DNA of 64,000 nucleotides from an uncultured delta proteobacterium (GCA_963788205.1 CAWBGG010000007.1:378732-442731); one strand, 5' to 3'; positions 16,541 through 46,106 are shown, numbered from the stretch's first letter. A program made the numbers and translations. Notes: generated by a model not told the origin, from the sequence alone.

Positions 16541-18295
16541 GTGATGAAACCGGGTGACCCCGTACCCGCCGGCCATCTGCTCGACGGCCGATACCGCGTT
16601 AACAAGGTAATCGGCCAGGGCGGCATGGGGCGCGTCTATATGGCCAACGACACTCGTCTGGCCAACCGTCCGGTCGCCGTCAAGGAGATGATCGTCGATG
16701 CCGGCGGCGAGCAGGAAAAAAAGGCCATCGAGGACTTCCAGCGTGAGGCGAGCGTGCTCGCCGCGTTGACGCATCCCGGCATCCCCAATCTCTTCGACAA
16801 TTTCATCGAGAACGGCCGCCATTACCTGGTGATGGAGTTCGTTGCGGGCGGAGATCTTCAGGCGATGCTCGACCAGCTGGGCCCGCGCGCGCGTATCGAG
16901 GAAGCGCGGGTGCTCCGCTGGGCACGCCAGATTCTCGACGTGCTGGTCTTTCTGCACGCGCAGAAGCCGCCGATTATCTATCGCGACTTCAAGCCCGGCA
17001 ACATCATGATCGACCGGCACGGGCGCGCGATGCTGATCGACTTCGGAATCGCGCGCTTTCTGCCGCCCGGCGGGCGCGGCACTCAAATCGGATCGATCGG
17101 CTACGCGCCCCCCGAGCAATACATGGGCAAGGCGGAGCCGCGCTCGGACCTCTACTCGCTGGCGGCCACGATGCATCATCTGCTCACCGGGCGCGATCCG
17201 CAGTTGGAGCCGCCGTTCAGCTTTCCGCCCGCGCGCCAGCTTGCACCCGAGCTCTCGCCCGCTACGGAGCGGGTGATAATGAGCGCGCTGGATAAAGACG
17301 CCGCCAAGCGCCCGGCCTCCGCCAAAGAGATGCTCGATCGGCTGCCGGTCCCGCCGCCAGCCGAAGAGGAAGCCCCGACATTAGTTGGCGCGCCGATGCG
17401 AGCGGCGCCCTCGATCGCGGTGATGCCGACGATTGCGCTCTCCAGGCCCGTGGCCGCCGCCCCGGCGACGCCGGCGCCGCGTGCGCCGGCACCGGCGAGC
17501 GTGTCGTCCGCGTCCTCGATGCCGACCATCGTCCTGACGAATCCAGTTTCGGTCGCGGCGGCACCTGCGCCCGAGCCGGCCACGCCGATGTCGACCGCGC
17601 TCGAAAAGATCGCGGGACTCAAGCGCCTGGCGCGCTTCGCCACTCCGCGCATCCTCAAAACCCCGCCGGTGCGCACCGAGCCTTCTTCATCGCGAGCGCG
17701 CGTTTCATCGACCGCCAAAACCCAGGAGCTCAAGGGCAGCGGCGCCAAAGCCACGCCCTTGCACTCCCGCAGCGCGGCCAATTCCGCGTCATCGCCGCGC
17801 CATCCGAAGCGAGGCTCGGCGCCGCACACCCCCAGCTCGTCGAAGCCGGCTAGCGCACCGTCGAAGCCGGCCGCGGCGGTCAAAAAGGCCAGCGCGGCGA
17901 CGCCGCGAGCGCTCCCGCCGTTGCCGGTCGCGGCCAACGGCAAATCCGGTAAATCCGGTGCGGCGCTCGACGGACCTCGGCTGGTATGCAAGGCGGAGCA
18001 GGCCGAGTTTGGGCTCTGCGGTGAGCGAATCGTGATCGGCCGGGTGGCGGCATCGGCCGACGGCGCCGATATCGATCTCGACTTGTCCTCGCTCAAGCGC
18101 AGCGGCGAGCGAATTTCGCGCCGCCATGCCGAGATAATCCGGCTCGGCAAGGACTACTTCATCCGGGACCTGGGCAGCCTCAACGGGACTTTCATCGCGG
18201 GACGCGGCCGGCTGGGACGCGATCAACTCTACAAATTGAATGACCGCGACGAAGTCTTGCTGGGCGGCGCCAGGTTGGAGTTCCGCAAGGGATGA
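16541..18295 (+). CDS. Ser/Thr protein kinase with C-terminal FHA domain
   Basis: Kinase motifs GQGGMGRVY, VAVKEM, IYRDFKPGN (YRD instead of HRD), DFG, APE. C-terminal FHA with ISRRHAEI...DLGSLNGTF. Probable GTG start. Confidence 0.8.
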   Translation: MMKPGDPVPAGHLLDGRYRVNKVIGQGGMGRVYMANDTRLANRPVAVKEMIVDAGGEQEKKAIEDFQREASVLAALTHPGIPNLFDNFIENGRHYLVMEFVAGGDLQAMLDQLGPRARIEEARVLRWARQILDVLVFLHAQKPPIIYRDFKPGNIMIDRHGRAMLIDFGIARFLPPGGRGTQIGSIGYAPPEQYMGKAEPRSDLYSLAATMHHLLTGRDPQLEPPFSFPPARQLAPELSPATERVIMSALDKDAAKRPASAKEMLDRLPVPPPAEEEAPTLVGAPMRAAPSIAVMPTIALSRPVAAAPATPAPRAPAPASVSSASSMPTIVLTNPVSVAAAPAPEPATPMSTALEKIAGLKRLARFATPRILKTPPVRTEPSSSRARVSSTAKTQELKGSGAKATPLHSRSAANSASSPRHPKRGSAPHTPSSSKPASAPSKPAAAVKKASAATPRALPPLPVAANGKSGKSGAALDGPRLVCKAEQAEFGLCGERIVIGRVAASADGADIDLDLSSLKRSGERISRRHAEIIRLGKDYFIRDLGSLNGTFIAGRGRLGRDQLYKLNDRDEVLLGGARLEFRKG

Positions 18296-18345
18296 GCGCA
18301 AGGGCTATGATCGAAAAGGAAAGCCTACTTGGGAAGCCTATTTGA

Positions 18346-20385
18346 ATGATCACTTGTCCTGAATGCGGCTTCGCGGCCGGTGACGAAGCGAAATTCTGCG
18401 ACCGATGCGGCCAGGGACTGACTCGCGCCGCTGCGCGGCCGCCGTCGCTGCCGCCGCTCAGCCCCGGCGCCACACTCAAGGGCGGCTTCCAGATCGTCGA
18501 GTTGCTCGGCGCTAACTCCGCCGAGAATCGGTACCGTGCGACGCGCAGCGTGGACGGCGAGAACCAATCGTTCCAGCTTCGCGAGCGAATGGGGCCGGCC
18601 ACCGACCCGGAAGCGCACGAGGAGACGCCCGAGGCCGCGACCGCGAGCATTGCGGATAGAGCGGCATCGAGCACCGCGGATGATCCGAGCGGGCCGCGCG
18701 CCAAAACGCGTGATCTCAAGCCGTCCGCAGCCGCGCCGGCACCGTCGCGAGCCGAACCGGTCGCGCCCCCGTCGGTCGATTCGGAGCTGCATAGCGCCGA
18801 GGCTCCGTTGGGTTCGCCCGAGGTCGATGACGGATCGGGTGCCGAGCCGATCGTCCTGATCGAGACGGTAGCCGAAGGCGCCGCAGACGGTGCGAACCCG
18901 GCGCAAGACGCGCCCGCCGATCCGACCGGCGCGGATTCGTCTGTGGCCTCGGAGCCCCCACCGCCGGACGATCTCGGTGACGTCTTCGGCCGCGTGCTCT
19001 CGCTTTCGCAGACGATTAAGCATCCGGCGTTCCAATGCGCGCTTTCCGGATTCGCCCAGGATGGGCGCGTCTACCTGGTGTATCGCGACGAGAGTCCGCC
19101 ACCGCTCGCGGCGCGAGCCGGCGGTCTGCGGATGAGCGAGCCCGAAGCTATCGGGCTTGCGATCCAGGTGTGCCAGGCGGTCTCGGCGCTCCATCGGCGG
19201 GGCCTGCGGGTCAACGACATCTGCCCGCAATCGATCGTCATCGCGCCCGACGGCCGCGTGAAGCTCACCGGCCTGGATTACGTAAGCAACGACACCGAGC
19301 TGCAGTCCGACCCGATTTTCAACGACGGTTACACCGCGCCCGAAATCTACAAGGGCAGGCGGGCCGACAAGCGCGCCAACGTCTTTTCGGTCGGCGCGTT
19401 GCTTTACACCTGCCTGACGGGCGAGCGTATCGAGGCCGAAAGCTGGCTCGAAGAGGCGGGCGCGTTGAACTTCTACCCGCCGCATGTGGTCTCGCCCGCC
19501 CTCGAACAGGTGATTCGCCGGGCGCTGGCCTTCAATCCCGGCGAGCGATGGCCCACCGCCGACGCGCTCAAGACCGAGTTCATCAAGCTCGGCAGCACGA
19601 TCACGATTCGCGCCGCAGCCCTGACCGACGTGGGCCTAGTACGCGAACTGAACGAAGACGCGGTGATGGCGCTCCAGTACTCGCGGCAATCCCAGATCGA
19701 GCCGGCCGAAAGCTATCTCTACCTGGTAGCCGACGGGATGGGTGGGGCGGAGGCGGGCGAAGTCGCAAGTGCAATTGCCGTAAGAGCGATCCGGGAATAT
19801 GTTGAGAGCAAGCTCGCAGCCGAGGAAACCGCCGGCCCTTCCAGAGGAACCGCTGATCTTTGCGGACTGCTCAAGGACGCTCTCGAAGAAGCCAATCGCA
19901 GGATCCTCGATCATCAGGCGGCGAACCCGGAATTGCGCGGTATGGGATCGACCGCAGTCAGCGCATTGATTCTGCCGCCCGAGGCGGCCGTGGCCTGGGT
20001 CGGCGACAGCCGCGCCTACCTGAGCGACGCTGCGGGTATCCGCCAACTCACCAAGGACCATTCGCTGGTGCAGCGCCTGATCGAGATCGGACAGTTGACC
20101 CCGGAACAGGGGCGCAGCCACGAGCACAAGAACGTGATCACGCGATCGCTCGGCGCGCGGCAGAGCGGACCGGCCGGCGCCGAAGCCATCGCGATTCGGC
20201 TCAAGCGCGGCGACCGGATGGTGCTGTGCAGTGACGGCTTGACCACCCATGTCGAGGACCATCCGATCGGCGAAATCGTGCGCCGCCACAATGATCCTTA
20301 TGGGGCGGCACGTGAGCTGATAGTGGCCGCCAACGCCGGCGGCGGGACCGACAACATTTCAGTGGTAGTAATTTACGCCGAGTAG
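18346..20385 (+). CDS. zinc-ribbon - pseudokinase-like domain - PP2C Ser/Thr phosphatase fusion
   Basis: CPECGF...CDRCG ribbon. The kinase-like fold lacks the Gly loop and VAIK, and has LRVNDICPQS and LDY in place of HRDLKPxN and DFG. PP2C motifs LVADGMGG, GSTAV, VGDSRAY, SDGL, GGTDNISVVV are present. Confidence 0.75.
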   Translation: MITCPECGFAAGDEAKFCDRCGQGLTRAAARPPSLPPLSPGATLKGGFQIVELLGANSAENRYRATRSVDGENQSFQLRERMGPATDPEAHEETPEAATASIADRAASSTADDPSGPRAKTRDLKPSAAAPAPSRAEPVAPPSVDSELHSAEAPLGSPEVDDGSGAEPIVLIETVAEGAADGANPAQDAPADPTGADSSVASEPPPPDDLGDVFGRVLSLSQTIKHPAFQCALSGFAQDGRVYLVYRDESPPPLAARAGGLRMSEPEAIGLAIQVCQAVSALHRRGLRVNDICPQSIVIAPDGRVKLTGLDYVSNDTELQSDPIFNDGYTAPEIYKGRRADKRANVFSVGALLYTCLTGERIEAESWLEEAGALNFYPPHVVSPALEQVIRRALAFNPGERWPTADALKTEFIKLGSTITIRAAALTDVGLVRELNEDAVMALQYSRQSQIEPAESYLYLVADGMGGAEAGEVASAIAVRAIREYVESKLAAEETAGPSRGTADLCGLLKDALEEANRRILDHQAANPELRGMGSTAVSALILPPEAAVAWVGDSRAYLSDAAGIRQLTKDHSLVQRLIEIGQLTPEQGRSHEHKNVITRSLGARQSGPAGAEAIAIRLKRGDRMVLCSDGLTTHVEDHPIGEIVRRHNDPYGAARELIVAANAGGGTDNISVVVIYAE

Positions 20386-20412
20386 GCGTCAATAGCTGGT
20401 AGAATAATTGCG

Positions 20413-22764
20413 ATGACGAGCCAGCCGCCCAACAATCCCGATTCCGCCGCCACGGCGCCGCTGGCCGCCGGGGTCGTCCTTCAGAATCGCTACCTGATCG
20501 AGCGCCTGATCGGCGGTGGCGGAATGGGGATGGTCTATCTGGCGCGCGACCAGCGCTTGTCCAACCGGCCCTGCGCGATCAAGGAGATGGTCGATCACTT
20601 CATCGACCCGCAACAGCGCCTGGAAGCCAACGAATATTTCGCCCGCGAAGCCGACACCCTCGCCCAACTGAAGCATCCCGCGATTCCGGCGATCACCGAC
20701 CGCTTCGACGATCAGAACCGCCATTACCTGGTGATGGAGTACGTCGAGGGGCGCAACCTCGAGGAGGAGATCGCGGTCAACGGCGGTCCGTTCGCCGAGG
20801 GACTCGTGATCGACATCGGGCGCCAGTTGTGCGACGTGCTCGCCTACCTGCACAGCTTCACGCCGCCGGTCGTGTACCGCGACATGAAGCCCTCCAACGT
20901 GATGCTGACGCCCAAGGGACGGGTCGTGCTGATCGATTTCGGCATCGCGCGGCTGTTCCGCGCCGCGCGCAAGGGCACGATGATCGGCACGCTGGGCTTC
21001 GCGCCGCCCGAGCAATACCAGGGGATGGTCGATCCGCGCAGCGATATCTACTCGCTGGCGGCAACGCTGCACTACATCCTGACCGGGCGTGACCCGGAGA
21101 AGTTCCCGCCCTTCAGCTTTCCGCCGGTGCGCGAGTTGCGTCCCGAGGTCTCGGGCAACCTGGCCGGCTCGCTCGACATGGCGCTGGCCTACAAGCCCGA
21201 AGATCGCCCGCAAGCGGTTCAGGAATTCCGCGACATGATGCTCTACGGGCGCGGCGTGGCGGCCACCGGGCGCGTCAGCTCCAAGAGCGGCACCGCCGGA
21301 ATCGCGCCCCCGCCAGTCCCGGACGAAGACCTCATCCCGATCCGGCCGCGGTCCCGGAACACCTTCGCCAACGCCGCAAAGATGGCAGTGGTGCTGCTGA
21401 TGCTGGGGACGGTCGCGTTCGGCGCCACGTATATTTATTCGAGTCCGGCCCTGCAGATGCAGCTCGGGATCAAGCCGCTGATCGACAAGCTGCCGTGGCG
21501 TCACGAAGAATTGCTCGCCGCGGCCCGCGACCATCCACTCGAGTTCGCCCGCATGACCCTCCAGCTCTCGACGCGCGAGGGCGCGCCGCTGTCGCCGCCC
21601 AAGGCCTCTTTCACCGACGCGGAGCTTTCCGACGCGCGCTACCTGAAATGGGACGCGACCTTCACCAACCATCTTTCGGGGCTCGAGGGACGCTCCGACA
21701 AGGTCGAGGCGCGCTTCTTCGATCCCAGCGGACTGCAAGTCGCTTCCACCAACGTCGAGCGCTTCGTCGGCCCCGACGAGAAAACCATAGACTTCAGCGG
21801 CGTCGCGCTGGTGCCCGATCTCTCCGATCGCCCGCGCGGCGATTACAAGGTGAATCTCTCGCTGGGCGATCAGAGCCTGGCCGAGCAGCGCTTCTCGATC
21901 ACCGAAGATCTGGCGAGCAAGGCCAGGGCCGCGGCGGCCAAGGCGGCACGCGAAGCCGCGGCGCGCGAGGATCAGGAGAAACGCCTGGCGGCCGAGCACC
22001 GGCTGGCGATGATCGAGGAGCGCAAACAGAAGCCGCTGCAACTGGTCGATATCCACTTCGTCAACAGCACCAAAACCGGCACGCCGCTCTCCAGCCCGGC
22101 CGACAATTTCGACCCCGCCAAGGTGCTGTTTGTCGACTGGGAGGTCAGCTTCCAGAACCGGCTCTATAAGCTCGACAACAATCAGTACCGGGTCAACGCC
22201 GCCTACGTGGCGCCGGACGGACGCACGCTGGGCAGCGTCTACGACACCCGGATGGTTCCGGAATCGCTGCGCGAAGTCACGTTCAGCGGACGGGTCGGCA
22301 ACTCCAGCGGCGGAGCCTTCATTCCCGGCACCTACACTGTGACGTTTTATCTAAACGGCCAGTATCTGGCGGAGCGGAAGTTCCGCGTCGGTTCAGCCGA
22401 GGCGCTCAACGGCGGCGAAACCACCAGCATGGTGTCGCCCGGCGCCGCGGCGATCAGCCTCGACTCGCCGACGCTGGCCAGCGGCAATATCAGCGGGCTG
22501 GCCGGCAAGAGCAGCATCCCGATCGAGCTCCGGCTGAGACCCCAGCCCAACGGCTTTCTGCACGGCGAGCTGGTAATTCACGAAACCGGTTACGGACTCA
22601 CGCCCATCGAAGGCTATATCCGCGGCACCCATCTCTCGTTCCAGGTCCCCTATCGCGGCGAGACCCTCTACTTCGAAGGCGAGCAGAGCGGCGCCGGCCT
22701 GCAGGGAACCTTCGAGGGCGCCCCGTCAGGCGAACACGGCACCTGGACCGCCCGCCCGTCGTGA
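20413..22764 (+). CDS. membrane-anchored Ser/Thr protein kinase with large extracytoplasmic C-terminal domain
   Basis: GGGGMGMVY, CAIKEM, VYRDMKPSN, DFG, APE. One predicted TM segment (MAVVLLMLGTVAFGATYIY) followed by about 450 aa of non-cytoplasmic sequence. Confidence 0.8.
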   Translation: MTSQPPNNPDSAATAPLAAGVVLQNRYLIERLIGGGGMGMVYLARDQRLSNRPCAIKEMVDHFIDPQQRLEANEYFAREADTLAQLKHPAIPAITDRFDDQNRHYLVMEYVEGRNLEEEIAVNGGPFAEGLVIDIGRQLCDVLAYLHSFTPPVVYRDMKPSNVMLTPKGRVVLIDFGIARLFRAARKGTMIGTLGFAPPEQYQGMVDPRSDIYSLAATLHYILTGRDPEKFPPFSFPPVRELRPEVSGNLAGSLDMALAYKPEDRPQAVQEFRDMMLYGRGVAATGRVSSKSGTAGIAPPPVPDEDLIPIRPRSRNTFANAAKMAVVLLMLGTVAFGATYIYSSPALQMQLGIKPLIDKLPWRHEELLAAARDHPLEFARMTLQLSTREGAPLSPPKASFTDAELSDARYLKWDATFTNHLSGLEGRSDKVEARFFDPSGLQVASTNVERFVGPDEKTIDFSGVALVPDLSDRPRGDYKVNLSLGDQSLAEQRFSITEDLASKARAAAAKAAREAAAREDQEKRLAAEHRLAMIEERKQKPLQLVDIHFVNSTKTGTPLSSPADNFDPAKVLFVDWEVSFQNRLYKLDNNQYRVNAAYVAPDGRTLGSVYDTRMVPESLREVTFSGRVGNSSGGAFIPGTYTVTFYLNGQYLAERKFRVGSAEALNGGETTSMVSPGAAAISLDSPTLASGNISGLAGKSSIPIELRLRPQPNGFLHGELVIHETGYGLTPIEGYIRGTHLSFQVPYRGETLYFEGEQSGAGLQGTFEGAPSGEHGTWTARPS

Positions 22765-22856
22765 GGGCGACGGCGACCGTCTGACTTTGACAATCCGAAA
22801 CGCAGTAATCGCCTCGATCGCATCTTCGCGTTGATTGCCGATTATCTCTTCGCTTG

Positions 22857-24237: not shown

Positions 24238-24278
24238 GCGTCCTGTCCCTTCCGCCGCACGCGTGCCGCGTTGAGCGT

Positions 24279-25160
24279 CTACTTCTTTCCCGCCGCGCGG
24301 CGGCGTTCACCGCCGGAGCGCGCGGCTCGCGCATGCGCCTTGGCCGCGGACTGCTGCTCGGCCTGCTGCGTTTCGGGCGCGGCCACGCCGCGCTTGTCGA
24401 GCGAAGCCTTCAGCGCGGCCATCAGATCGATTACCTGGCCGCGGCGCGGCTCGGCCGGCGTGCCGACGGCCTGCTGGCCCGCGACCTTCTGCTGCGCTGC
24501 TTCGAGCACCCGTTCGCGATAGCTGTCGCGATATTGGGAAGGGTCGAACTTGTCGTGGGTCAGCTCGTCGATCAGCCGTTTCGCCAAGGCCAGCTCCGCT
24601 TCCTTGGCCGCCTCGTTCGCAGCGCGATCGACTTCCTCGACCGGCTTGACCTCGTCGGCATAGTAGACCGTATGGAGCATCAGGCCCTTGGCATAGGGGC
24701 GGATCAGGATCAGATGTTCCTTGCCGCGCAGCGTGTATTTCCCAAGCGCAACACGCTTGCTCGACATCATCGCGTCGCAGAGCAGGCGGTAGGCTTTGCC
24801 CGCTCCCGGCTCGGCGCCCAGATAGTACGAATCCTCGAAGTAGATCGGATCGACCGCCGACAGCGGTACGAACTCGGTTATTTCGATCGCGTGGTCGTCG
24901 CGCGCTTCGAGGTTCTTGAGTTCCTCATCGGTGAAGGTGACGTAGCGGCCCTTCTCGATCTCGTAGCCCCGGACCAGCTCGCTGCGATCGATGATCGCGT
25001 CGTCCACGGGGCAGTAGATTTTCTGCTGGATACGGCTTAGGTCCTTGGCATGCAGCAGGTTGAAGCTCACCGACTTGGCAGAGGTCGCGCCGAACAACCT
25101 GACCGGGATGGAAACCAGACCGAAGGAAATATTGCCACTGCTGACGGGCCGTGCTGCCAT
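24279..25160 (-). CDS. ku: Ku protein (NHEJ)
   Basis: ISFGLVSIPVRLF N-terminus and Ku core, with a basic C-terminal tail. Confidence 0.85.
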   Translation of the reverse strand: MAARPVSSGNISFGLVSIPVRLFGATSAKSVSFNLLHAKDLSRIQQKIYCPVDDAIIDRSELVRGYEIEKGRYVTFTDEELKNLEARDDHAIEITEFVPLSAVDPIYFEDSYYLGAEPGAGKAYRLLCDAMMSSKRVALGKYTLRGKEHLILIRPYAKGLMLHTVYYADEVKPVEEVDRAANEAAKEAELALAKRLIDELTHDKFDPSQYRDSYRERVLEAAQQKVAGQQAVGTPAEPRRGQVIDLMAALKASLDKRGVAAPETQQAEQQSAAKAHARAARSGGERRRAAGKK

Positions 25161-25284
25161 AAACGGGAGCCTCCGGATGCTGATCGTAGCCTATGAACGA
25201 CCGGCCTGCACAAGAGCCCTGCGCGGTGATTTCGCAGTAGTCTTTACCTACACCCGGTATTTTCCGGCGAAATAAAGGCGAATA

Positions 25285-29735: not shown

Positions 29736-29980
29736 CTTTGGATTCCCTCCCAAGCCAAGAGTTTCGTGAGTGCCAGAACAGTATTCCAAAAATCCTGCGC
29801 GACTAAAAGTCCCGTCCATGCCGATTGCCTAGGCAATGCGTTCAGGCCGCCATGAAATGAGCCGGCTTGGAGGTGGAGAAACGGGACTTCGGCATAGCGC
29901 TATCGCAGCCTGTTTATGCCAAGATTCGTCAATACTCGGCGGAATCGATAACCACGGCCGCGGTTCGAGGACTTTTTGTG

Positions 29981-31054
29981 ATGGCTCAGGATATCAAGAC
30001 CAAAGCACTCGATTTGGCGCTCAGTCAGATCGAAAAACAATTCGGCAAGGGCTCGATAATGAAACTCGGCGAGCAGGCCATTGAGGCCGACATCGCGGTC
30101 GTCCCGACCGGCTCGCTGGGACTCGATCTGGCGCTGGGCGTGGGCGGAATTCCGCGCGGACGCGTGGTCGAAATCTACGGACCGGAGTCGTCGGGCAAGA
30201 CCACGCTTGCGCTCGAATGTATCGCCGAGGCGCAGAAGCTCGGCGGCGTATGCGCCTTCATCGATGCCGAGCACGCACTCGACGCCGCCTACGCGCGCAA
30301 GCTCGGGGTCAAGGTCGAGGAACTGCTTATTTCGCAGCCCGACAACGGCGAGCAGGCGCTGGAAATCGCCGAAACCCTGGTGCAATCGAGCGCGATCGAC
30401 GTGCTGGTAATCGACTCGGTTGCCGCGCTGGTGCCGCGCGCCGAAATCGAAGGTGAGATGGGCGAGCCGCAGATGGGCCTGCAGGCGCGCCTCATGTCGC
30501 AGGCGCTGCGCAAGCTCACCGGGATAATCTCCCGTTCGCGCACGATCGTGATCTTCATCAACCAGATTCGAATGAAAATCGGCGTGATGTTCGGGAATCC
30601 TGAGACCACGACCGGCGGCCACGCGCTCAAGTTCTATTCGTCGGTGCGAATCGATATACGGCGGATCGGAACGATCAAGAACGCGACTGAGGTGATCGGC
30701 TCGCGGACCAAGGTCAAAGTGGTCAAGAACAAGGTTGCGCCGCCATTCCGCGAGGCCGAATTCGACATCCTGTACGGCTCGGGCATCTCCAAGGAAGGCG
30801 AGCTGGTCAACATGGGCGCCGAACACAACGTGATCGAGAAACTTGGCGCCTGGTACTCGTACGAGGGCGAGCGGATCGGGCAGGGCCGCGAGGCCGCACG
30901 CGACTTTCTGAAGGCCAATGCCGACGTCGCAGCCGACGTGGAAGCCAAAATCCGCCAGAAGCTCCAGGCTCGGGCCGGAGCGCCGGTTGCGGCCGCTGCC
31001 GCCGTCGAGCCGCCCGCTGATGGAGCGCCGGCGCCGTCCAAACGCAAGGGCTGA
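29981..31054 (+). CDS. recA: recombinase RecA
   Basis: GPESSGKTT Walker A plus the full RecA core. Internal ATG at 29981; the ORF-track upstream extension is not real. Confidence 0.95.
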
Positions 31055-37763: not shown

Positions 37764-37968
37764 TGTCGTGCCGGTTTAGGACGAAAGAAAAACTAGAAGT
37801 TATCAGAGAGTCATTCCCGAATCGACAGCAGCGGAACCCGGGCAGCATGCGGTTCGCCTACTGCGCCAATGCGGATTCAGGAACAAATGCATTCCTTGCT
37901 CCGCGAGGCCTGCGCTAGTCTGAACGGACGATGCATCCGGCGACGCCGGGTTGCGACGATTCTGGGAT

Positions 37969-38799
37969 ATGGCTGATCGCACTCCGATTCCGGTTGGCAA
38001 ATACGCCAAGACCGCCAAGGGCTACGAGATCCACTACCACGAGGCCGGCGGCGGTGGCGATCCGGTGGTGTTCATCCACGGCGCCGGTCCCGGCGCCAGC
38101 GGTTACAGTAACTTCAAGCGGAACTATCCGTTTTTCGCCGAGCAGGGCTTGCGCGCGATCGTGCCCGACCTGCCGGGCTACGGGCTGTCCTCCAAGCCCG
38201 CGGACGTGGCCTACACGCTCGACTTCTTCGTCGAGACCCTGCGCGGATTTCTCGACGCGATCGGCGTGCGGCGATGCGTTCCGTTGGGCAATTCGCTCGG
38301 CGGCGCGATCGCGATCAAGTACACGCTCGACTATCCCGACTCGGTGAGCAAGCTCATCCTGATGGCGCCGGGCGGCCTCGAGGAGCTGCCGACCTACCTG
38401 CAGATGGAGGGCATCCAGAACATGCTCAGGGTCCATTCCGCGGGCCCAATCAACGCAGAAGGCATCCGCAACATCATGTCCAAGCAGCTCTACGACCCCG
38501 CTCTGCTCACCGAAGAGCTGCTCGCAGAGCGCGCGGGGATTTCCGTGACCCAGCCGAGCACCGTGCTCTCCACGATGCGGGTGCCGAACATGGCCGCGCA
38601 ACTTGGTTCCATCCGATGCCCGGTGCTGGGCTTCTGGGGAATCAACGACAAGTTCAATCCGGTCAGTGGCGCGACCAAAATTGTCGAAGGATGTCCAAAC
38701 GCGCGCGTTACGCTGCTCAACCGCTGCGGTCACTGGGTGATGGTCGAGCATCGCGACTTCTTCAACCGCGCGTGCATTGACTTCCTGCGCAACGGCTGA
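37969..38799 (+). CDS. alpha/beta hydrolase, meta-cleavage product (C-C bond) hydrolase family (MhpC/BphD-like)
   Basis: GNSLGG nucleophile elbow and the alpha/beta-hydrolase pattern. Lies upstream of the hydratase gene. Confidence 0.75.
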   Translation: MADRTPIPVGKYAKTAKGYEIHYHEAGGGGDPVVFIHGAGPGASGYSNFKRNYPFFAEQGLRAIVPDLPGYGLSSKPADVAYTLDFFVETLRGFLDAIGVRRCVPLGNSLGGAIAIKYTLDYPDSVSKLILMAPGGLEELPTYLQMEGIQNMLRVHSAGPINAEGIRNIMSKQLYDPALLTEELLAERAGISVTQPSTVLSTMRVPNMAAQLGSIRCPVLGFWGINDKFNPVSGATKIVEGCPNARVTLLNRCGHWVMVEHRDFFNRACIDFLRNG

Positions 38800-38811
38800 T
38801 TCGCTCGGGCG

Positions 38812-39603
38812 ATGGATGACAGCGCCGTCAGCGCTCTGGCCGACGAGCTGTACTCGGCCTTGCGCGCGCGCTCGACCGTGGCTCCGCTCAGCGAACGCCA
38901 TCCCGACATCACGATCGCCGATGCCTATCGCATCTCGCTCCGGATGCTTGAGCGGCGCACCGCCGACGGCGAGCGCGTGATCGGCAAGAAAATCGGCGTG
39001 ACCAGCCGCGCGGTGCAGGAGATGCTCGACGTACATCAGCCCGACTTCGGCTTCCTGACCGACGCGATGCGCTATCCCGACGGCGCGACGATAAGCATCC
39101 GCCGGGCCGGGTTGATCCAGCCGCGCGCGGAAGGCGAGATCGCTTTCATCCTGAGCCATGACCTCGCCGGATCGAACGTCACCGCCGCCGACGTGCTCGA
39201 CGCCGCCGAAGCGGTGATGCCTTGCTTCGAGATCGTCGACTCGCGGATCGCGAACTGGAAGATCAAGATCGAAGACACCGTGGCCGACAACGCTTCGTGC
39301 GGCGTCTTCGTGCTCGGCCAGGCGCGCGTCGATCCCAAGGGACTCGACCTGGCCTCGGTGCGGCTCGAAATGTTTCGCAACGGAGAGCCGGTCGCTTCGG
39401 GACTCGGCTCGGCGGTGCAGGGGCATCCGGCGGCGGCGGTCGCATGGCTCGCCAACACGCTGGGCAAGTTCGGTATCCCGTTCCGAAAGGGCGAGATCAT
39501 TCTTTCCGGTTCCCTGGTGCCGCTGATCCCGGCGTCGGCCGGCGATAGCTTCGAACTGTCTATCGGCGGCATCGGCGGAGCCTCTGTCCGATTCGCCGAT
39601 TGA
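38812..39603 (+). CDS. mhpD: 2-keto-4-pentenoate (2-oxopent-4-enoate) hydratase
   Basis: MhpD/BphH/HpcG-family pattern over the full 263 aa. Confidence 0.8.
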   Translation: MDDSAVSALADELYSALRARSTVAPLSERHPDITIADAYRISLRMLERRTADGERVIGKKIGVTSRAVQEMLDVHQPDFGFLTDAMRYPDGATISIRRAGLIQPRAEGEIAFILSHDLAGSNVTAADVLDAAEAVMPCFEIVDSRIANWKIKIEDTVADNASCGVFVLGQARVDPKGLDLASVRLEMFRNGEPVASGLGSAVQGHPAAAVAWLANTLGKFGIPFRKGEIILSGSLVPLIPASAGDSFELSIGGIGGASVRFAD

Positions 39604-39850
39604 CTAGTACGCTATTAGTTCAAAATGGAAATTCCGGCTTAATGGCGCAATTGCCGTCCAGCGATGCGACACTGACGCAAGGGGGTGGATTTTGCGCTAT
39701 GGCTGCTGTACTTCCCCAGCAACGCCATTCCAAAGGCACCCGCGAGTGCGAAAAGAAGATAACTCCGTCTCAACGCTGCCTCCCCATATTGTATCCGGGA
39801 TTTCCGTTTTGACACCTCGGATTAAGATGATAATTAGTACAGGTTCCCCT

Positions 39851-40801
39851 ATGAAAGTTACCATGGACCGAAAATGTTGGGGTTTCACGCCTCCCGGCGT
39901 CAAAGCATGCTGCAGGCAGTGGTTTTGCCTATTAGTTGTCGCAGGGTTTCTAACTGGCTGTGCGTCAACCGGCACGTCAGCGTATCGCAACCCTAACTTT
40001 GACCAGAGCAAATCTTACCGGGTAGCAGTTTTCCCATTCCGCGATGCGCCTCAAGCTCCCGGAAGTGGCGATGCGCTGTCAACCATATTTGAAGGTACGC
40101 TTTTGGCAAGTGGTGGAAGGTTCGAACTGGTTGACCGTGGAGAAATAGAGCGGATTTTGCGCGAGCACCATGCGGGTGTCAATGGGATGGGGGCCGGTGT
40201 CGGCGGGGATCGTCCGGATTATGTACAAGAATTTGAGGATCCGGTTGGAGTCGGTAAACTACTCCGGGTTGACCTTGTTGTTGTGGGTACGGTAACAAAA
40301 TGGCAGGACTTGCCAGGCAGACCCTCGGTCGCAGCTTTAGTCAAAGCGGTTAGCGTAGAAAAAGGGGTTGTTGTTTGGTCTCTGGATCAGTTTACGGATG
40401 ATGCGCCTCATAACCCCGTGGATTTTGTGGCTTCCAAGCTTTGCCGCCAAATGATCGCCACGTTGGTGGGAAAGAATCCGATCGCCTTGTGGCATACGAA
40501 ATCCGAAGGCGCGGAGCTGGAGCTTGGTTCAACAAACACGCTGGTGTATCGTAACCCCAACTTTGACCAAAGCAAATCGTACCGGGTAGCAGTTTTCCCA
40601 TTTCACGACGCGCCTCAAGCCCCCGGAAGTGGAGATAGGCTGTCAAGCATATTTGAAAGTACACTTTTGGCCAGCAGTGGAAACTTCGAAGTCGTTGAGC
40701 GTGAAGAAACAGAGCGGAGTTTGCGCGAGCGCCATCCGGATGTCAATGGGATGGGGGGCCGGTGCCGGAGGGGATCATCCGGATTATCGACAAGAAGTTG
40801 A
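39851..40801 (+). CDS. CsgG/LpoB-like lipoprotein, copy 1, fused in frame to a signal-less partial copy 2 that then frameshifts
   Basis: Lipobox FLTGCAS. Core YRNPNFDQSKSYRVAVFPF(R/H)DAPQAPGSG...IFE.TLLAS.G.FE.V.R.E.ER.LRE. After copy 1 the frame runs through ...IALWHTKSEGAELELGSTNTLVYRNPNFDQ... into a second core with no stop, then goes out of frame at a run of 6 g (5 g in copies 1 and 3). Confidence 0.6.
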   Translation: MKVTMDRKCWGFTPPGVKACCRQWFCLLVVAGFLTGCASTGTSAYRNPNFDQSKSYRVAVFPFRDAPQAPGSGDALSTIFEGTLLASGGRFELVDRGEIERILREHHAGVNGMGAGVGGDRPDYVQEFEDPVGVGKLLRVDLVVVGTVTKWQDLPGRPSVAALVKAVSVEKGVVVWSLDQFTDDAPHNPVDFVASKLCRQMIATLVGKNPIALWHTKSEGAELELGSTNTLVYRNPNFDQSKSYRVAVFPFHDAPQAPGSGDRLSSIFESTLLASSGNFEVVEREETERSLRERHPDVNGMGGRCRRGSSGLSTRS

Positions 40802-41048
40802 GGATCCAGTTGCTGTCGGTAAACTTCTCCGGGTTGACCTTGTTATCGTGGGCACGGTAACAAACTGGACTCAACGTCAGGCATTCGGATCCTCGGTCGG
40901 AGCTTCTGTCAAAGCGGTTAGTGTAGAAAAAGGGGTCGTTGTGTGGTCTTTGGTTAAGTCTACGGAACACCATTACGCGATCAACGTCGTGGCTCGCAAG
41001 CTTTGCAGCCAAATGATCGCGGCATTGGTGGGTAAGAATCCGAATTAG
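40629..41048 (+). pseudogene. out-of-frame C-terminal remainder of lipoprotein copy 2
   Basis: This frame encodes GAGGDHPDYRQEVEDPVAVGKLLRVDLVIVGTVTNW...ARKLCSQMIAALVGKNPN, homologous to the C-terminal halves of copies 1 and 3. Confidence 0.6.
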
Positions 41049-41060
41049 AACTGTTCCCCT

Positions 41061-41705
41061 ATGGAGGCTACCATGCACCGAAAGTGTTGGGGCTTCGGGC
41101 CTGCCAGCGTCAGAGCATTCTGCAAGCAGTGTCTTTGCCTATTGGTAATCACAGGGTTTCTAACTGGCTGTGCGTCAACCGGCACGTTGGTGTATCGCAA
41201 CCCTAACTTTGACCAAAGCAAATCTTACCGGGTAGCAGTTTTCCCATTCCACGATGCGCCTCAATCCCCCGGAAGTGGAAATGCGCTATCAACCATATTT
41301 GAAAGTACACTTTTGGCGAGCGGTGGAAAGTTCGAAGTGGTTGAGCGTGGAGAAATAGAACGGATTTTGCGTGAGCGCCATCCGGATGTCAATGGGATGG
41401 GGGCCAGTGTCGGCAGGGATTCTGGACAAGAATTCGAGGATCCGGTTGCGGTCGGTAAGCTTCTCCGGGTTGACCTTGTTATTGTGGGCACGGTAACAAA
41501 CTGGACTCAAGGTGTGCAAGCAGGCTGGGCTACTTTTTCCACTACCGCGGTCGGAGCTTCTGTCAAAGCGGTTAGTGTGGAAAAAGGGGTTATTGTTTGG
41601 TCTTTGGATCAGTCTGCACAGCCTGCTTGGGTCCTTACCGGGCCGGTGGATGCTGTGGCTCGCAAGCTTTGCCGCCAAATGGTCGCGACATTTGTGGGAG
41701 AGTAA
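41061..41705 (+). CDS. CsgG/LpoB-like lipoprotein, copy 3 (intact)
   Basis: 214 aa. Same leader (ttcccctatg...ccatg), lipobox and core as copy 1. Upstream sequence is also duplicated. Confidence 0.7.
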   Translation: MEATMHRKCWGFGPASVRAFCKQCLCLLVITGFLTGCASTGTLVYRNPNFDQSKSYRVAVFPFHDAPQSPGSGNALSTIFESTLLASGGKFEVVERGEIERILRERHPDVNGMGASVGRDSGQEFEDPVAVGKLLRVDLVIVGTVTNWTQGVQAGWATFSTTAVGASVKAVSVEKGVIVWSLDQSAQPAWVLTGPVDAVARKLCRQMVATFVGE

Positions 41706-41889
41706 TTGTCCAATGTTGTGAATCGGCCGGTGGACCGAGGCGAACTCCGTCGACGAACTTCACGCCCGCACGGACCAGAGACAAGAGGGTGGCGCCGTCG
41801 AGGCGCCGCCAGCGCTGCTGGGCCATGTCGAGCAGCTTGAACGCCATCAGCAGTGCCTTGGTTCTTGAATCGGCGCGCCAGGCGGCTCG

Positions 41890-41957
41890 GTGAATTTTTA
41901 CGTGAGCGACGACGACAGCACGCCGACGTGGGGCAGCGCCGATTACCGGCACCAGTA
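41890..41957 (+). pseudogene. relic 3-prime fragment of a kinase paralog
   Basis: tttttacgtgagcgacgacgacagcacgccgacgtggggcagcgccgattaccggcaccagtag encodes FYVSDDDSTPTWGSADYRHQ*. It is nearly identical to the last 20 codons of the next gene (FYVSDDGSTLTWGSNSYRRQ*), and has the same stop-to-start junction. Confidence 0.65.
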
Positions 41958-41973
41958 GCGGGAGAGGAACGTC

Positions 41974-44163
41974 GTGCTTTCAGCAGGCTTCGTACTGGCC
42001 GGCCGCTACCGCGTGATTCGCTTGCTCGGCGGCGGCGGAATGAAGCGCGTCTATCTCGCCGAAGACGCGGGGCAAGCCGCACTGCGGCGCGTGGTAGTCG
42101 AGCCCGCGAACGATCCTGGCGAGCCGCAAGCGCGAGAACAGGCATCCGCAGGGCTCCAACTGAAAGCACAAGCGCTGGAGCCCCTTCGCAACGGGCACCT
42201 CGCCCAGTTGCTCGAGTTCCTTACTGAAGACGGCCGCCTCTACCTAATCCGCGAGTACGTAGAAGGCGAATCGCTAGAAGAGCGAATCAGGAGGATGCCG
42301 AAGACCGGTTTGGCGCCTGAGTTCGTAATCGGCCTCGCGCTCCAGATTCTGGACGGCCTGGTTGTTCTGCATGGACTCGATCCGCCGTTCATCTATCGCA
42401 ACCTCAAGCCCTCCAACGTGATCATCGGACCGGAGGGAGTTGCGAAGCTGGTCGATTTCGGCCTTGCGCTCGACCTCGCGCCGCCATCTCTGGCCACAAA
42501 AATCGGCGCGCGGCCATACTCCGCGCCCGAACAGTACGAGCGTCGCGACGGGCCACAGAGCGATCTCTACGCGCTCGGCGCGATCATGCACCACGCGCTG
42601 TCGGGCCGCGATCCCGTCAAATCGGCGCCGTTTCGGTTTCAGCCGCTCGAGCGGCTCCGTCCGGACCTGAATCCCGATCTCTGTAAGCTTGTTGATCGCT
42701 CGCTGGCCTTCAACGTAAACGAGCGCGTCCCGTCCGCCCAGTTCTTCAAGGATTCTCTCCTCGCCATCAAGGCAGGCCAGCCGCTGCCGGCTTTCGCCCC
42801 GGCGCAGGCGCCTGCGTCGCCGGTCGCGGCGCAGCCTGGCGCAGCGGCGCCCGCGCGACCGCGCTCGCGTCGCGCGCCCTGCCCGCACTGCCAACGACGA
42901 ATCCCGCGCGACGCGCGCACCTGCCCTTACTGCGCGCGCAACGTCGCTACGGGCGAGATAGGCGTAGGCGCGTCCTCATCAGGGCGAAAGATCCCCGCGG
43001 CTGCGATAGGCATTGCCGCCGTCGCGGCTGCCGTGGTCGCAGGCGTGTTCATCCTCAGGCCTGATCATGCGTCCAGTCCAGCGGTGCGGCAAATTGCCGC
43101 TCCCGCTTCGGTCCCTTCGCATTCGGCGGCTGAGGCCGAAGCGGAAGCGCATCGGCTCGCGCTCGCGCGGCAGTTCGACGCCGACATGGCGGCGTTTCGC
43201 GGCGCCGAGCCGTCCAGCCACTCACGAGAGAGACTCCGCCGGACGATCATAGCCGAGGGTGTTAACATGAATCCGCCGCCGGGTCTGCCCCAGGACGCAC
43301 TGCAACATCTCGATCGTGGCGATGCCGATCTCAAGGCGCGCAACTATGCCGAGGCGGCCGGCGAGTTTCGCGAGGCGCTGGACGAGGCGCCATGGCTGGC
43401 GCAGGCCTATCGGGGTCTCGCCCGGGCACGCGAATCAGCCGGCGATCTGGACGGCGAGATCGAAGCCTCCAACGACTATTTGCTCGCCTCACCGCAGGCG
43501 TCCGATGCGCTGGAGGTGAAGGCGCATGCCGCAGCGTTGGGCCAGCGAATCTTCGCAAGTCAGAGCGACGCCGCCTTGCGCAACGAGATCCAGGCCCTAC
43601 AAGTCAAGCAGCAGGAGGAGGAGGCGGAGCAGGCGCGAATTCGGGCGCAGGAGCAGGCCGAGGAAGAGGCCCGTCAAGAGCAGCAGCGGCAGAACCAGCG
43701 CCAGCAGGCCGAGCAGCAGCGCCAGCAGGTCGAGCGGGAGCAACGGTGCCGGGAAAACTTCGTCGGAAGGTGGGGAGAGTACGACGTCGAGTGCTGCGGC
43801 GAAAGACGTTCGGGCGCGACCTCTTTTTTACCGCCCGGCTCCGGCGGCAGACCGATTCAGGGGCTGGGAGGAGTATATCAGATCGACCTCGCCGGCAAGC
43901 AGCTACAAGTTTATCGGGTGCTTGGGGTAAAGTGCAGCCGTGCCTGCGAATCGACCGGTCTGTATCAAACCAGCGAACTCGTGTTCGACGGTACCCTCAC
44001 CAATCAACGCACGAATTGGAGCGGCAACTGCAGCTTCACAGCTACCGGCGAGATTCATCACTTCGACCCTTTTGAGGCAGTGCCCATCGACTCGGTGGAC
44101 TTTTACGTCAGCGACGACGGTAGCACGCTGACGTGGGGCAGCAACAGTTACCGGCGCCAGTAG
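41974..44163 (+). CDS. transmembrane Ser/Thr kinase-like protein, predicted pseudokinase, with zinc ribbon, TPR-like and coiled-coil periplasmic region
   Basis: GGGGMKRVY is present. The beta-3 Lys is lost (RRVVVEP). The catalytic loop reads IYRNLKPSN (Asp to Asn). DFG and APE are present. CPHC...CPYC ribbon, then a TM segment, then a TPR-like segment, a Q/E/R-rich coiled coil and a Cys-containing C-terminal domain. GTG start. Confidence 0.75.
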   Translation: MLSAGFVLAGRYRVIRLLGGGGMKRVYLAEDAGQAALRRVVVEPANDPGEPQAREQASAGLQLKAQALEPLRNGHLAQLLEFLTEDGRLYLIREYVEGESLEERIRRMPKTGLAPEFVIGLALQILDGLVVLHGLDPPFIYRNLKPSNVIIGPEGVAKLVDFGLALDLAPPSLATKIGARPYSAPEQYERRDGPQSDLYALGAIMHHALSGRDPVKSAPFRFQPLERLRPDLNPDLCKLVDRSLAFNVNERVPSAQFFKDSLLAIKAGQPLPAFAPAQAPASPVAAQPGAAAPARPRSRRAPCPHCQRRIPRDARTCPYCARNVATGEIGVGASSSGRKIPAAAIGIAAVAAAVVAGVFILRPDHASSPAVRQIAAPASVPSHSAAEAEAEAHRLALARQFDADMAAFRGAEPSSHSRERLRRTIIAEGVNMNPPPGLPQDALQHLDRGDADLKARNYAEAAGEFREALDEAPWLAQAYRGLARARESAGDLDGEIEASNDYLLASPQASDALEVKAHAAALGQRIFASQSDAALRNEIQALQVKQQEEEAEQARIRAQEQAEEEARQEQQRQNQRQQAEQQRQQVEREQRCRENFVGRWGEYDVECCGERRSGATSFLPPGSGGRPIQGLGGVYQIDLAGKQLQVYRVLGVKCSRACESTGLYQTSELVFDGTLTNQRTNWSGNCSFTATGEIHHFDPFEAVPIDSVDFYVSDDGSTLTWGSNSYRRQ

Positions 44164-44174
44164 GGAAGAATCGC

Positions 44175-46106
44175 ATGCTTGCAGCAGGCGTCGTATTGGC
44201 CGGTCGATACCGTGTCGTGCGTCCGCTCGGCGGCGGCGGGATGAAGCAGGTCTATCTCGTAGAAGACACGCGGCTCGCCAATCGCCCCTGCGCGCTGGCC
44301 GAGATGATCGACAGCTTCTCCGACCCCAAGGAAGCCCAGGCCACCGCCGCGGCTTTCCAGCGCGAAGCCGAAATGCTCGCAAGCCTGCGTCATGATCAAA
44401 TCGTCGTCGTTCACGACCGCTTCAGCGAGCAGAACCGCCACTACCTGGTGATGGAGTACGTCGAGGGCGACACGCTGGAGCAGAAGCTTGCGGCTGCTCC
44501 GGGCAATCGGCTGGACGAGAAGCTTATCACCGATGTCGCGCTGCAAATAACCGACGCGTTAGAATATCTGCACCGCCATAATCCGCCGGTCGTTTACCGC
44601 GATCTCAAGCCGGCCAACGTGATGCTCACCCCGGATGGGCGGGTGAAGCTGATCGATTTCGGCATCGCGCGGCTGTTCGTGCCCAAGAAGACCGCAACGA
44701 TGGTTGGGACCCAAGGCTACGCGCCGCCGGAGCAGTACGAGGGCAAGGCCGAGCCGCGGAGCGACCTCTATGCGCTCGGCGCGACGATGCACCATCTGCT
44801 CACGGGCCGCGATCCTGGCACCCAAGTGCCGTTCAGCTTTCCGCCGGTCGGTGGCCTCCGGCCGGACTGTGATTCGCGCATCGCCGACCTGATCGACGAG
44901 TCGCTCAGATACAACCTGGCCGATCGGATCACGAGCGCCTCAGAGTTCCGCAGGCGGCTAGAGAACATCAAATCACCGTCGGGCGGGTTCAGGCCGGCTG
45001 CGGCAGCATCCACGCCGACGCCGTCGGTTTCCGCTCCGCCGTTCGGCGGAGCGGTCACGGTGACGACGCTGATTCAGGCCAGACAGTGCCCGCGCTGCAC
45101 GCGCGGCGTTCCGGTCAACGCGGTCGTATGCCCCTATTGCAGCGCGCGACTGGGGCACACTGCGGTCTCGGCCGGGAAGCGCCGCCGATGGCCGCTCGCT
45201 GTTGCCTCGCTGGCCGTTGCCTTCGGAGCGGTGTTCGCCGGAGCCTATTACTACGAGAATATCTACCTGCCGCAACCGCGGCCGGCCGCCGGGCAGCAAG
45301 CGCACGCGGCACCCGAAGCGCAACCGACGGCTGCCCGGCGTGAAGCGGCGCCGGAACAGCCGCGTCCCGAGAACGCCGCCATCGCGGAGCGGAATGCAAA
45401 TCTCAGTGCGCAACTCGCCCAGGACGTAACTGCGCTCCAGCGCGCCAAGGCAGGCTCTGCGAAGGAGAAGTGGTTGCGCGAGGATGTGATCTCAGCGGCG
45501 CTGCAGATGAGTCCGCCGCCGGCAGTGCCCGACGACGCCCGGAAGCTTATCGATCAAGGAGAGGCGGCCCTGAAGGTCGCAAGCACGGCGGGCGAATATC
45601 GCAAGGCGGCGGTGGAGTTGAATCGGGCGTTGAAGCTCGCCCCGTGGTATGCGCCCGGCTACACAGCGCTGGCGGACGCGGAGGAGGGGGCGAACGATCT
45701 CGATGCGGCGGCTTCGAGTCTAAGGGCATATCTGATTGCCGCGCCGACCGCCGCGGACAGCGCGAGCGTCAGCGCGCGCATCTCGGAGCTTGAGCAACAG
45801 GCGGTCCAGCAGCGGCAGCAGGCGGCGGAACAGCGCAAGCTTGCCGAACTCAAGAAGCAGCAAGAGCAGAAGCAAGCGGAGATCGACAAGGAGCGGCAAG
45901 AAGAAAAGCAGCCTCGGAACGAAGAGCAGACACAAGACAAATACAAGGCTGCCGCGGAGGCTGATTGCCGAAGGGAGCACGCTGCGGTGAACGCATATTT
46001 GTCCTGCCTACAACGATGGCCTCATGACCTCGATCGCTGTACTGACGCACCTCCCCTTTTTCACGACTGCGAGTATCTCTATGAGAAATATGGTGAGCGG
46101 CTTTAA
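44175..46106 (+). CDS. transmembrane Ser/Thr kinase paralog (beta-3 Lys replaced) with zinc ribbon, TPR-like and coiled-coil periplasmic region
   Basis: GGGGMKQVY, CALAEM (Lys to Ala), VYRDLKPAN, DFG, APE. CPRC...CPYC ribbon and a TM segment. Overlaps the upstream gene by about 30 nt. Close paralog of the kinase at 20413. Confidence 0.75.
   Translation: MLAAGVVLAGRYRVVRPLGGGGMKQVYLVEDTRLANRPCALAEMIDSFSDPKEAQATAAAFQREAEMLASLRHDQIVVVHDRFSEQNRHYLVMEYVEGDTLEQKLAAAPGNRLDEKLITDVALQITDALEYLHRHNPPVVYRDLKPANVMLTPDGRVKLIDFGIARLFVPKKTATMVGTQGYAPPEQYEGKAEPRSDLYALGATMHHLLTGRDPGTQVPFSFPPVGGLRPDCDSRIADLIDESLRYNLADRITSASEFRRRLENIKSPSGGFRPAAAASTPTPSVSAPPFGGAVTVTTLIQARQCPRCTRGVPVNAVVCPYCSARLGHTAVSAGKRRRWPLAVASLAVAFGAVFAGAYYYENIYLPQPRPAAGQQAHAAPEAQPTAARREAAPEQPRPENAAIAERNANLSAQLAQDVTALQRAKAGSAKEKWLREDVISAALQMSPPPAVPDDARKLIDQGEAALKVASTAGEYRKAAVELNRALKLAPWYAPGYTALADAEEGANDLDAAASSLRAYLIAAPTAADSASVSARISELEQQAVQQRQQAAEQRKLAELKKQQEQKQAEIDKERQEEKQPRNEEQTQDKYKAAAEADCRREHAAVNAYLSCLQRWPHDLDRCTDAPPLFHDCEYLYEKYGERL

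Follow-up and report, generated by a model that had tools for sequence, protein, structure and literature searches.

In the eukaryotic protein kinases WNK1 and POMK the catalytic lysine stands in strand β2 (PMC10211241; PMC13519141), and this relocation has been treated as peculiar to eukaryotic WNK and POMK (PMC10211241; PMC13519141, August 2026). For bacteria, the bSTK atlas (bioRxiv 10.1101/2025.01.12.632604) and a 2025 review (PMC12599244) catalogue seven pseudokinase families, ActPs1-3, GLW, CP1, DYD and DLHK, and both mention WNK only as a eukaryotic analogy. Is a catalytic lysine in strand β2 then a eukaryotic invention? Here we describe the kinase-like gene 44175 and its family, found through a 64,000-nucleotide (nt) stretch of DNA from an uncultured delta proteobacterium (GCA_963788205.1 CAWBGG010000007.1:378732-442731), hereafter the window. 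To judge from sequence, the family has undergone a WNK-type relocation of the lysine by convergence, and its members are most likely active kinases. A search of open-access texts and bioRxiv found no bacterial β2-Lys kinase family, although absence there is no proof.

A profile scan of all open reading frames (ORFs) of the window returned five kinase-like ORFs and no further kinase-like domain; they score 50.3-140.1 bits, and all pass the Pfam Pkinase (PF00069) gathering cutoff of 31.7. Four are called 16541, 20413, 41974 and 44175, numbers that denote gene starts and not motif positions; the fifth, 18346, has its kinase-like domain fused to a PP2C phosphatase. The window, which the names of its homologs assign to a Binatia (Binatota) genome, holds two unrelated Ser/Thr phospho-signalling loci, drawn from ancient members of one (Y/F)RD Hanks-type clade. 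A first-pass annotation, made by a model from the DNA sequence, had proposed one divergent YRD clade expanded in this genome, with a graded series from active kinase to pseudokinase among recent paralogs.

Samples compared

A profile built from the window kinases was used to collect 235 kinase domains, drawn from the 150 best representatives at 50% identity; this sample is skewed to relatives of the queries and does not give a YRD frequency for all bacterial kinases. A second set of 171 homologs comprises the 120 best found with the 44175 kinase domain as query and 51 more found with 41974. A scan covering a single genome of each GTDB species gave at least 594 matching stretches, from which 80 loci were kept. 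Nearly all of these come from Binatia metagenome-assembled genomes (MAGs), apart from two labelled Acidiferrales and a few whose label says no more than Proteobacteria. WNK1 was represented by PDB 6cn9 chain A.

44175 and its family carry a lysine in strand β2 and alanine in β3

In 44175 the β3 lysine position is filled by alanine (A42, nt 44298-44300, in CALAEM), and a lysine is found in strand β2 (K24, nt 44244-44246, in GGGGMKQVY). The αC Glu (E64), VYRDLKPAN, DFG (nt 44655-44663) and APE are intact, and the AlphaFold2 (AF2) model has a normal kinase fold (pLDDT 88.7). The first-pass annotation had placed the β3 residue correctly. A phmmer alignment to StkP sets the Ala of CALAEM on the Lys of VAVK, and BLASTP to WNK1 (28% identity) agrees, setting A42 on Cys250 and K24 on Lys233. 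This is the WNK-type arrangement: a non-basic residue at β3, combined with Lys at the third-glycine position of GxGxxG. We propose that the ATP-anchoring lysine would have moved from β3, now Ala, to this position of the Gly loop in strand β2, from where Lys24 would reach the ATP phosphates and αC Glu64 in place of the β3 lysine. 44175 would then be an active kinase, with Lys24 taking over that role.

The two changes are shared by a large family that extends across the phylum Binatota. G.GGMK.VY, ALAE, [IV]YRD and DFG occur without exception in the 120 best homologs of the 44175 kinase domain, which are 58-66% identical to it and mostly bear the names Candidatus Binatus or Binataceae. The 51 further homologs show the same four features, save that one of them has FRD, and each of the 80 genomic loci holds a single kinase with the G.GGMK, ALAE, YRD and DFG features. 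The family also occurs in a few MAGs labelled Acidiferrales or Limnocylindrales, for which mis-binning is possible.

Among the 235 domains, a β2 Lys is combined with a residue other than Lys at β3 in 48 and with a β3 Lys in only one; 14 have neither lysine and 162 are canonical. For this covariation the Fisher p is 4.5e-35, not corrected for phylogeny. The single K/K domain is degenerate and falls outside the clade, and the sample also includes one G/A domain. The 48 domains are exactly monophyletic in a neighbour-joining (NJ) tree from which the key columns were excluded, and the clade (n=47) can be told apart from canonical (Y/F)RD sisters (n=66) by just two alignment columns: Lys at β2 in 100% versus 0%, and at β3 Ala in 98% versus Lys in 100%. 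K24 is the sole invariant Lys of the N-lobe in a 10-sequence alignment of the family.

Could these proteins be conserved pseudokinases, binding ATP, possibly via Lys24, and signalling through conformation or as scaffolds without phosphotransfer? Some pseudokinases retain most motifs and bind nucleotide, bacterial families with an altered β3 are predicted to bind ATP (PMC12599244), and a layout of Zn ribbon, transmembrane (TM) segment and periplasmic domain fits a receptor scaffold too. We take this explanation seriously and still find it unlikely. Of the 48 clade representatives, 47 keep the catalytic Asp, the Lys and Asn of HRDxKxxN, the DFG Asp, the αC Glu and APE, and so do all 171 homologs. 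Domains that lack both the β3 and the β2 Lys, by contrast, usually degrade further, only 5 of 14 retaining the αC Glu, HRD Asp, Asn and DFG Asp. When a member of the family does lose function, as with 41974, the Asp and the Glu go too. Finally, WNK1 and POMK catalyse with the same arrangement (PMC10211241).

Gene order gives circumstantial evidence against the scaffold explanation. In 74 of the 80 loci the kinase of the main subfamily (proteins of ~505 aa) is directly preceded, on the same strand, by a gene for a membrane protein with two FHA domains, and in 64 of the 80 it is directly followed by one for a PHP-family phosphoesterase (e.g. L045:4436-5611, 6001-7512, 7526-8182). The phosphoesterase may be the cognate phosphatase of the main-subfamily β2-Lys kinase. 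Since FHA domains read phosphothreonine, an operon of this composition implies that phosphothreonine is made, and hence an active kinase in the main subfamily.

Several points weigh against reading the family as active kinases. Activity is here deduced from conservation alone, and much of this residue set would also be retained by a conserved scaffold that binds ATP without catalysing. The K/A pair has a single origin, in one clade, so that its covariation represents one event and the Fisher p exaggerates independence. The clade receives moderate bootstrap support, at 23/50, or 33/50 without 41974 (46-66%, NJ only). The FHA/PHP context is confined to the main subfamily, and the neighbourhood of the 44175 subtype is not conserved. 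In addition, 44175, 41974 and 20413 of the window have no identical or near-identical entry in the protein collection, whose coverage of the lineage is partial.

The window's 44175 belongs to a second subtype, marked by VYRDLKPAN and a longer TPR-like C-terminus, with a variable neighbourhood: no neighbour of 41974/44175 recurs beside orthologs in the 80 loci or on the P0003 and P0001 contigs, so that its surroundings offer no hint of its function. A close relative of this subtype at L083:1-8333 (GCA_049692055.1) adjoins VirB4 and TrbL (type IV secretion), a Fic protein and a protein with an FGE-sulfatase domain, which suggests that the 44175 subtype can travel on mobile elements.

Resemblance to WNK

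Like 44175, WNK1 has a small residue at β3 (Cys250 versus Ala42) and its β2 Lys at the third-glycine position (GRGSFK versus GGGGMK), and the αC Glu, HRD Asp and Asn are kept in both. Does this likeness hint at a common origin, by shared ancestry or by horizontal transfer? The position of the Lys is identical and the β3 residue is small in both, both have PP before the catalytic loop (TPPIIHRDLK versus NPPVVYRDLK), and WNK1 and WNK3 rank high among the eukaryotic structures that match 44175. They appear only from rank 28 onward, however. The 23 best Foldseek matches are bacterial Stk1, PknA, PknB and PknI, and the 60 best PDB sequence matches are bacterial StkP, PknA, PknB and PknF, followed by Aurora, NEK1 and a CDPK, with no WNK. 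The nearest sisters of the family are bacterial (Y/F)RD kinases with the canonical Lys that differ only at the two swapped positions. The 44175 family reads YRD and DFG, whereas WNK reads HRD and DLG. Nor did Pfam detect the C-terminal WNK domains (CCT/PF2-like) in 44175, in which only Zn-ribbon and weak TPR matches follow the kinase domain. On the sequence and fold rankings we reject a WNK ancestry, to which we attach almost no credence; the resemblance most likely reflects convergence and arose independently.

41974, a probable pseudokinase beside 44175

The neighbouring gene 41974 retains the β2 Lys (K24, nt 42043-42045). At β3 it has Val (V42, nt 42097-42099), the αC Glu is replaced by Lys (K64, nt 42163-42165) and the catalytic Asp by Asn (N143, nt 42400-42402). 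That this copy has neither a β3 Lys nor the catalytic Asp had been recognised in the first-pass annotation, and the translation, with RVVVEP and YRN, bears it out. In the NJ tree 41974 falls inside the β2-Lys clade as a long-branched member, the only degenerate one. Its C-terminal half, with Zn ribbon, TM segment, TPR-like region and coiled coil, is homologous throughout to that of 44175 (34% identity, E=2e-35), from which we conclude that the pair arose by whole-gene tandem duplication. After the duplication 41974 would have lost the αC Glu and the catalytic Asp, and Ala would have changed to Val. The GC content of its three codon positions (GC1/2/3) still follows the pattern of a coding gene.

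No homolog of 41974 above 50% identity came up in the database search, the best match standing at 50%, and no tandem YRN partner exists in 83 other contexts (the 80 loci plus L083-L085). Because coverage of the lineage is partial, the missing ortholog is weaker evidence than it appears. By its sequence, 41974 is probably a lineage-specific pseudokinase derived from a β2-Lys kinase, and it would probably partner with, or regulate, its neighbour 44175. Directly upstream of the two genes lie two adjacent, weakly CsgG-like ORFs (39692-40801 and 41061-41705, both on the plus strand), which are not found beside orthologs elsewhere.

Catalytic motifs and the (Y/F)RD clade

All motif strings quoted in the first-pass annotation are present in the translations. 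The catalytic loops read IYRDFKPGN in 16541 (nt 16976-17002), VYRDMKPSN in 20413 (nt 20872-20898), IYRNLKPSN in 41974 (nt 42391-42417) and VYRDLKPAN in 44175 (nt 44592-44618), and all four proteins have DFG. The β3 Lys is present in 16541 (VAVKEM) and 20413 (CAIKEM), and absent from 41974 (Val, in RVVVEP) and 44175 (Ala, in CALAEM). The Gly loop is GGGGMK in 41974 and 44175, as opposed to GGGGMG or GQGGMG in the canonical pair 16541 and 20413; in αC, 41974 has LQLKAQ, without the Glu, in place of FQREAE. The first-pass annotation records neither the Gly-loop Lys, nor this loss of the αC Glu, nor the low identity among the paralogs. Only 16541 and 20413 carry the complete canonical set of β3 Lys, αC Glu, HRD Asp, Asn and DFG Asp. 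Measured against it, 44175 is short of the β3 Lys only and 41974 of Lys, Glu and Asp, while the PP2C-fused domain of 18346 is without the canonical Lys (Arg instead), the Asn and the DFG Asp. If a pseudokinase is defined by sequence as missing the VAIK Lys, the HRD Asp or the DFG Asp, the term covers 44175 (Lys), 41974 (Lys, Asp) and 18346 (Lys, DFG Asp). For 44175 we consider the label misleading, because a β2 Lys is present.

Is the Tyr of YRD itself unusual? Of the 235 related domains, 95 have H as the first residue of the HRD position, 86 have Y and 51 have F. With Y/F thus at 58%, the possibility raised at the outset, that YRD might be widespread in ordinary bacterial kinases, is partly realised. 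The Y/F group has signatures of its own that are rare in the H group, namely PP before [VI][YF]RD, IARxF, APPEQY, GRDP and PFSF. A single (Y/F)RD clade with distinct signatures therefore stands as first suggested; its supposed restriction to an expansion in this genome does not, the clade being large and widespread. The model bacterial kinases in PDB (StkP, PknA and PknB) fall on the HRD side. Solved PKA chains read LIYRDLKPEN, with the Tyr as native residue, and PKA Tyr164 is the regulatory-spine residue RS1. Being native to PKA, YRD is no defect and is compatible with activity; the observation of YRD is in itself ordinary.

Many of the closest relatives among the representatives P0172-P0320 (e.g. 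P0193, P0250, P0272 and P0182) are giant proteins that hold 2-6 tandem kinase domains, in which intact domains alternate with degenerate ones (HRN, FRA, GFG and similar). Compared with the window, these proteins offer far more bacterial pseudokinase domains.

Age of the window kinases

The kinase domains of the window share 35-56% identity among themselves and 24-30% with the PP2C-fused domain. Relatives of each type in other Binatia genomes are far closer: 76-91% identical for the 16541 type and 79-91% for the 20413 type (80-91% and 86-91% for the orthologs), with motifs and architecture kept in both, 59-74% for the 44175 type, and 57-88% over the full length for the PP2C fusion (119 proteins). 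With paralogs at 35-56% and orthologs at 57-91%, the idea of recent paralogs has to be abandoned.

The graded series first proposed would make 44175 a kinase at the start of decay, 41974 one further along and the PP2C-fused domain the end state. It is true that all three are formally pseudokinases by sequence definition and that 41974 is degraded at three positions. The K-to-A change of 44175, however, is fixed family-wide (in 171 homologs, at 80 loci and in 47 representative clusters) and invariably comes paired with the β2 Lys, the other catalytic residues being kept. The PP2C-fused pseudokinase, for its part, is conserved across Binatia with a mean column conservation of 0.84, and each of the three states sits on an ancient lineage of its own. 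Decay along a series of recent paralogs is accordingly very improbable. The ortholog identities, the conserved operon described below and the conservation of the pseudokinase domain lead us to regard the window kinases as old, maintained lineages and not as stages of one decay.

The first-pass annotation had also drawn attention to identical stretches in 20413 and 44175, and the stretch QNRHYLVMEYVEG is indeed common to the two, with 37/39 nt identical. Its 13 residues are conserved family-wide, and this protein conservation, joined to a codon bias towards high GC at third positions (GC3), accounts for the nucleotide identity. Recent gene conversion between 20413 and 44175 was rejected: the kinase domains are 69% identical at the DNA level overall, and the longest exact match spans 31 nt.

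Locus 1: a five-gene operon with a PP2C-fused pseudokinase

The second phospho-signalling locus of the window (Table 1) is a cluster of five genes, 14461-22764, for a VWA protein, an FHA protein, a kinase-FHA protein, the Zn-ribbon/pseudokinase/PP2C fusion and a membrane kinase; it is repeated gene for gene in two other Binatia assemblies (L081 and L082). Kinases 16541 and 20413, which have the full catalytic set, are presumed active. A hydropathy scan gives no TM segment in the 16541 protein, and in 20413 it places one near aa 318-343, between the kinase domain and an extracytoplasmic domain of ~440 aa that has no Pfam match. The PP2C phosphatase would reverse the phosphorylation carried out by these two kinases.

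Table 1. Genes of the two phospho-signalling loci and unmatched antisense ORFs of the window.
Feature	Coordinates	Strand	Details
VWA-domain protein, operon gene 1	14461..15768	+	Pfam VWA E=1.2e-18; position kept in L081, L082
FHA-domain (phosphothreonine-binding) protein, operon gene 2	15787..16461	+	Pfam FHA E=2e-14; position kept in L081, L082
Cytoplasmic Hanks-type Ser/Thr kinase with C-terminal FHA	16541..18295	+	Pfam Pkinase 1.9e-38, FHA 2.8e-13; Gly loop GQGGMG
Zn-ribbon/pseudokinase/PP2C fusion	18346..20385	+	Pfam PP2C 2.8e-18, Pkinase 2.9e-13; NCBIfam Stp1_PP2C 6e-68
Membrane Hanks-type Ser/Thr kinase	20413..22764	+	Pfam Pkinase 9e-37
Probable pseudokinase paralog of 44175	41974..44163	+	Kinase-like domain, Zn ribbon, TM segment, TPR-like region, coiled coil
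Predicted Hanks-type kinase with relocated lysine	44175..46106	+	Kinase domain, Zn ribbon, TM segment, TPR-like region, coiled coil
Long antisense ORFs (503-730 aa)	14434-16626, 46392-48473, 37915-39426	-	No family match; opposite well-supported genes

The phosphatase part of the fusion matches Pfam PP2C with 67 bits (cutoff 20.3) and NCBIfam Stp1_PP2C with 228.8 bits, slightly below the equivalog cutoff of 230; its metal-binding motifs ADGMGG and GGTDN are conserved. A database entry (P0321) is 100% identical to the window protein. The kinase-like domain was said at first to lack the Gly loop, VAIK and DFG altogether, and this is confirmed: there is no GxGxxG, β3 carries Arg in place of Lys (QLRER), and the DFG region reads LTGLDY, TGLD replacing DFG. 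The catalytic loop is VNDICPQS, with the HRD Asp preserved as VND. The domain is likely to be catalytically inactive.

It is, even so, no mere remnant of a C-lobe. In the AF2 model, three strands β1-β3 form the N-lobe at aa 48-83 with pLDDT >90, followed by an insertion of ~110 residues, predicted to be disordered, between β3 and αC, and Foldseek superposes the model on PknB over the whole fold (target TM 0.79). Mean column conservation among the 119 full-length orthologs reaches 0.84 in the pseudokinase and 0.82 in PP2C but falls to 0.49 in the linker; the pseudokinase, being as conserved as the phosphatase domain, is ancient and maintained. We therefore describe it as an ancient conserved pseudokinase with a split N-lobe. 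It would serve as a docking or regulatory module. The insertion (aa 84-205) is of low complexity and poorly conserved, yet contains a short DPxGPRAKT motif that is highly conserved across orthologs.

Other features of the window

Between the two loci lies a bacterial non-homologous end joining (NHEJ) pair: Ku (24279-25160, minus strand) and, in divergent orientation to it, a full-length LigD with phosphoesterase, ligase and primase-polymerase domains (25285-27900, plus strand). RecA follows ~2 kb past LigD (29867-31054, plus strand), and 32604-35354 (plus strand) encodes a protein of 916 aa that has a pro-kumamolisin (sedolisin) activation domain. The region downstream of 41974/44175 (46245-48407, plus strand) encodes a pair of meta-cleavage pathway enzymes, acetaldehyde dehydrogenase and 4-hydroxy-2-oxovalerate aldolase. 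The long unmatched minus-strand ORFs of Table 1 are typical high-GC shadow ORFs and not genes.

Implications

If the lysine did move in these bacteria, the independent two-site swap constitutes a natural experiment: was the change neutral, or did it open the way to new regulation? One may speculate, on an idea that we rate as improbable, that the move to β2 was a convergent innovation giving WNK-like regulation, in which for instance the vacated β3 pocket would bind an anion or osmolyte and gate autophosphorylation, and that 41974 and 44175 would form a bacterial allosteric heterodimer of pseudokinase and kinase. The β2-Lys family lends itself, as a simple system, to mutagenesis that swaps the lysine back (K24G plus A42K), and 41974 beside 44175 is a ready pair for studying how a pseudokinase originates from this type of active site. 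More generally, "pseudokinase" calls based on motifs can mislabel thousands of metagenomic proteins.

Comparison with known systems

The best sequence and structure matches of 44175, PknB, StkP and PknA, share its general layout of a cytoplasmic kinase, one TM segment and an extracytoplasmic sensor, which is standard for bacterial receptor kinases. They have HRD and the β3 Lys. The window clade, in contrast, has (Y/F)RD, its own signatures, one subclade with a moved Lys, and no PASTA domains.

For locus 1, the closest precedents are the fhaA-fhaB-pstP-...-pknA-pknB cluster of Actinobacteria and, in Pseudomonas type VI secretion, the PpkA/PppA/Fha1 pathway of threonine phosphorylation, in which PpkA carries a VWA domain. 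Locus 1 draws on the same set of parts, with FHA proteins, a PP2C phosphatase, two Hanks kinases and a VWA domain, and PpkA (5hnv) is among the fold matches. The window, however, has neither rodA/pbpA nor type VI secretion genes, its PP2C shares one protein with a Zn ribbon and a pseudokinase domain, and VWA is a separate protein.

In HER3 (ErbB3) the catalytic Asp is replaced by Asn, giving xRN. 41974 is alike in its xRN, in the loss of the αC Glu, and in its place beside an intact paralog of the same receptor-like architecture. It is bacterial, however, and unrelated to HER3 by descent; heterodimerisation and allosteric activation are, in its case, pure inference.

The seven catalogued bacterial pseudokinase families all lack the VAIK Lys. 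ActPs2 and DYD have Arg in its place, as does the PP2C-fused domain, and DLHK has a conserved Arg in β2. As far as their published descriptions allow comparison, none of them has a β2 Lys and a β3 Ala together with an intact HRD Asp, DFG and αC Glu, and their range (Actinobacteria, Firmicutes, Proteobacteria and Cyanobacteria) excludes Binatota. In POMK, finally, the equivalents of DFG and HRD are rearranged and the substrate is a glycan, whereas the 44175 family keeps canonical HRD-type and DFG motifs.

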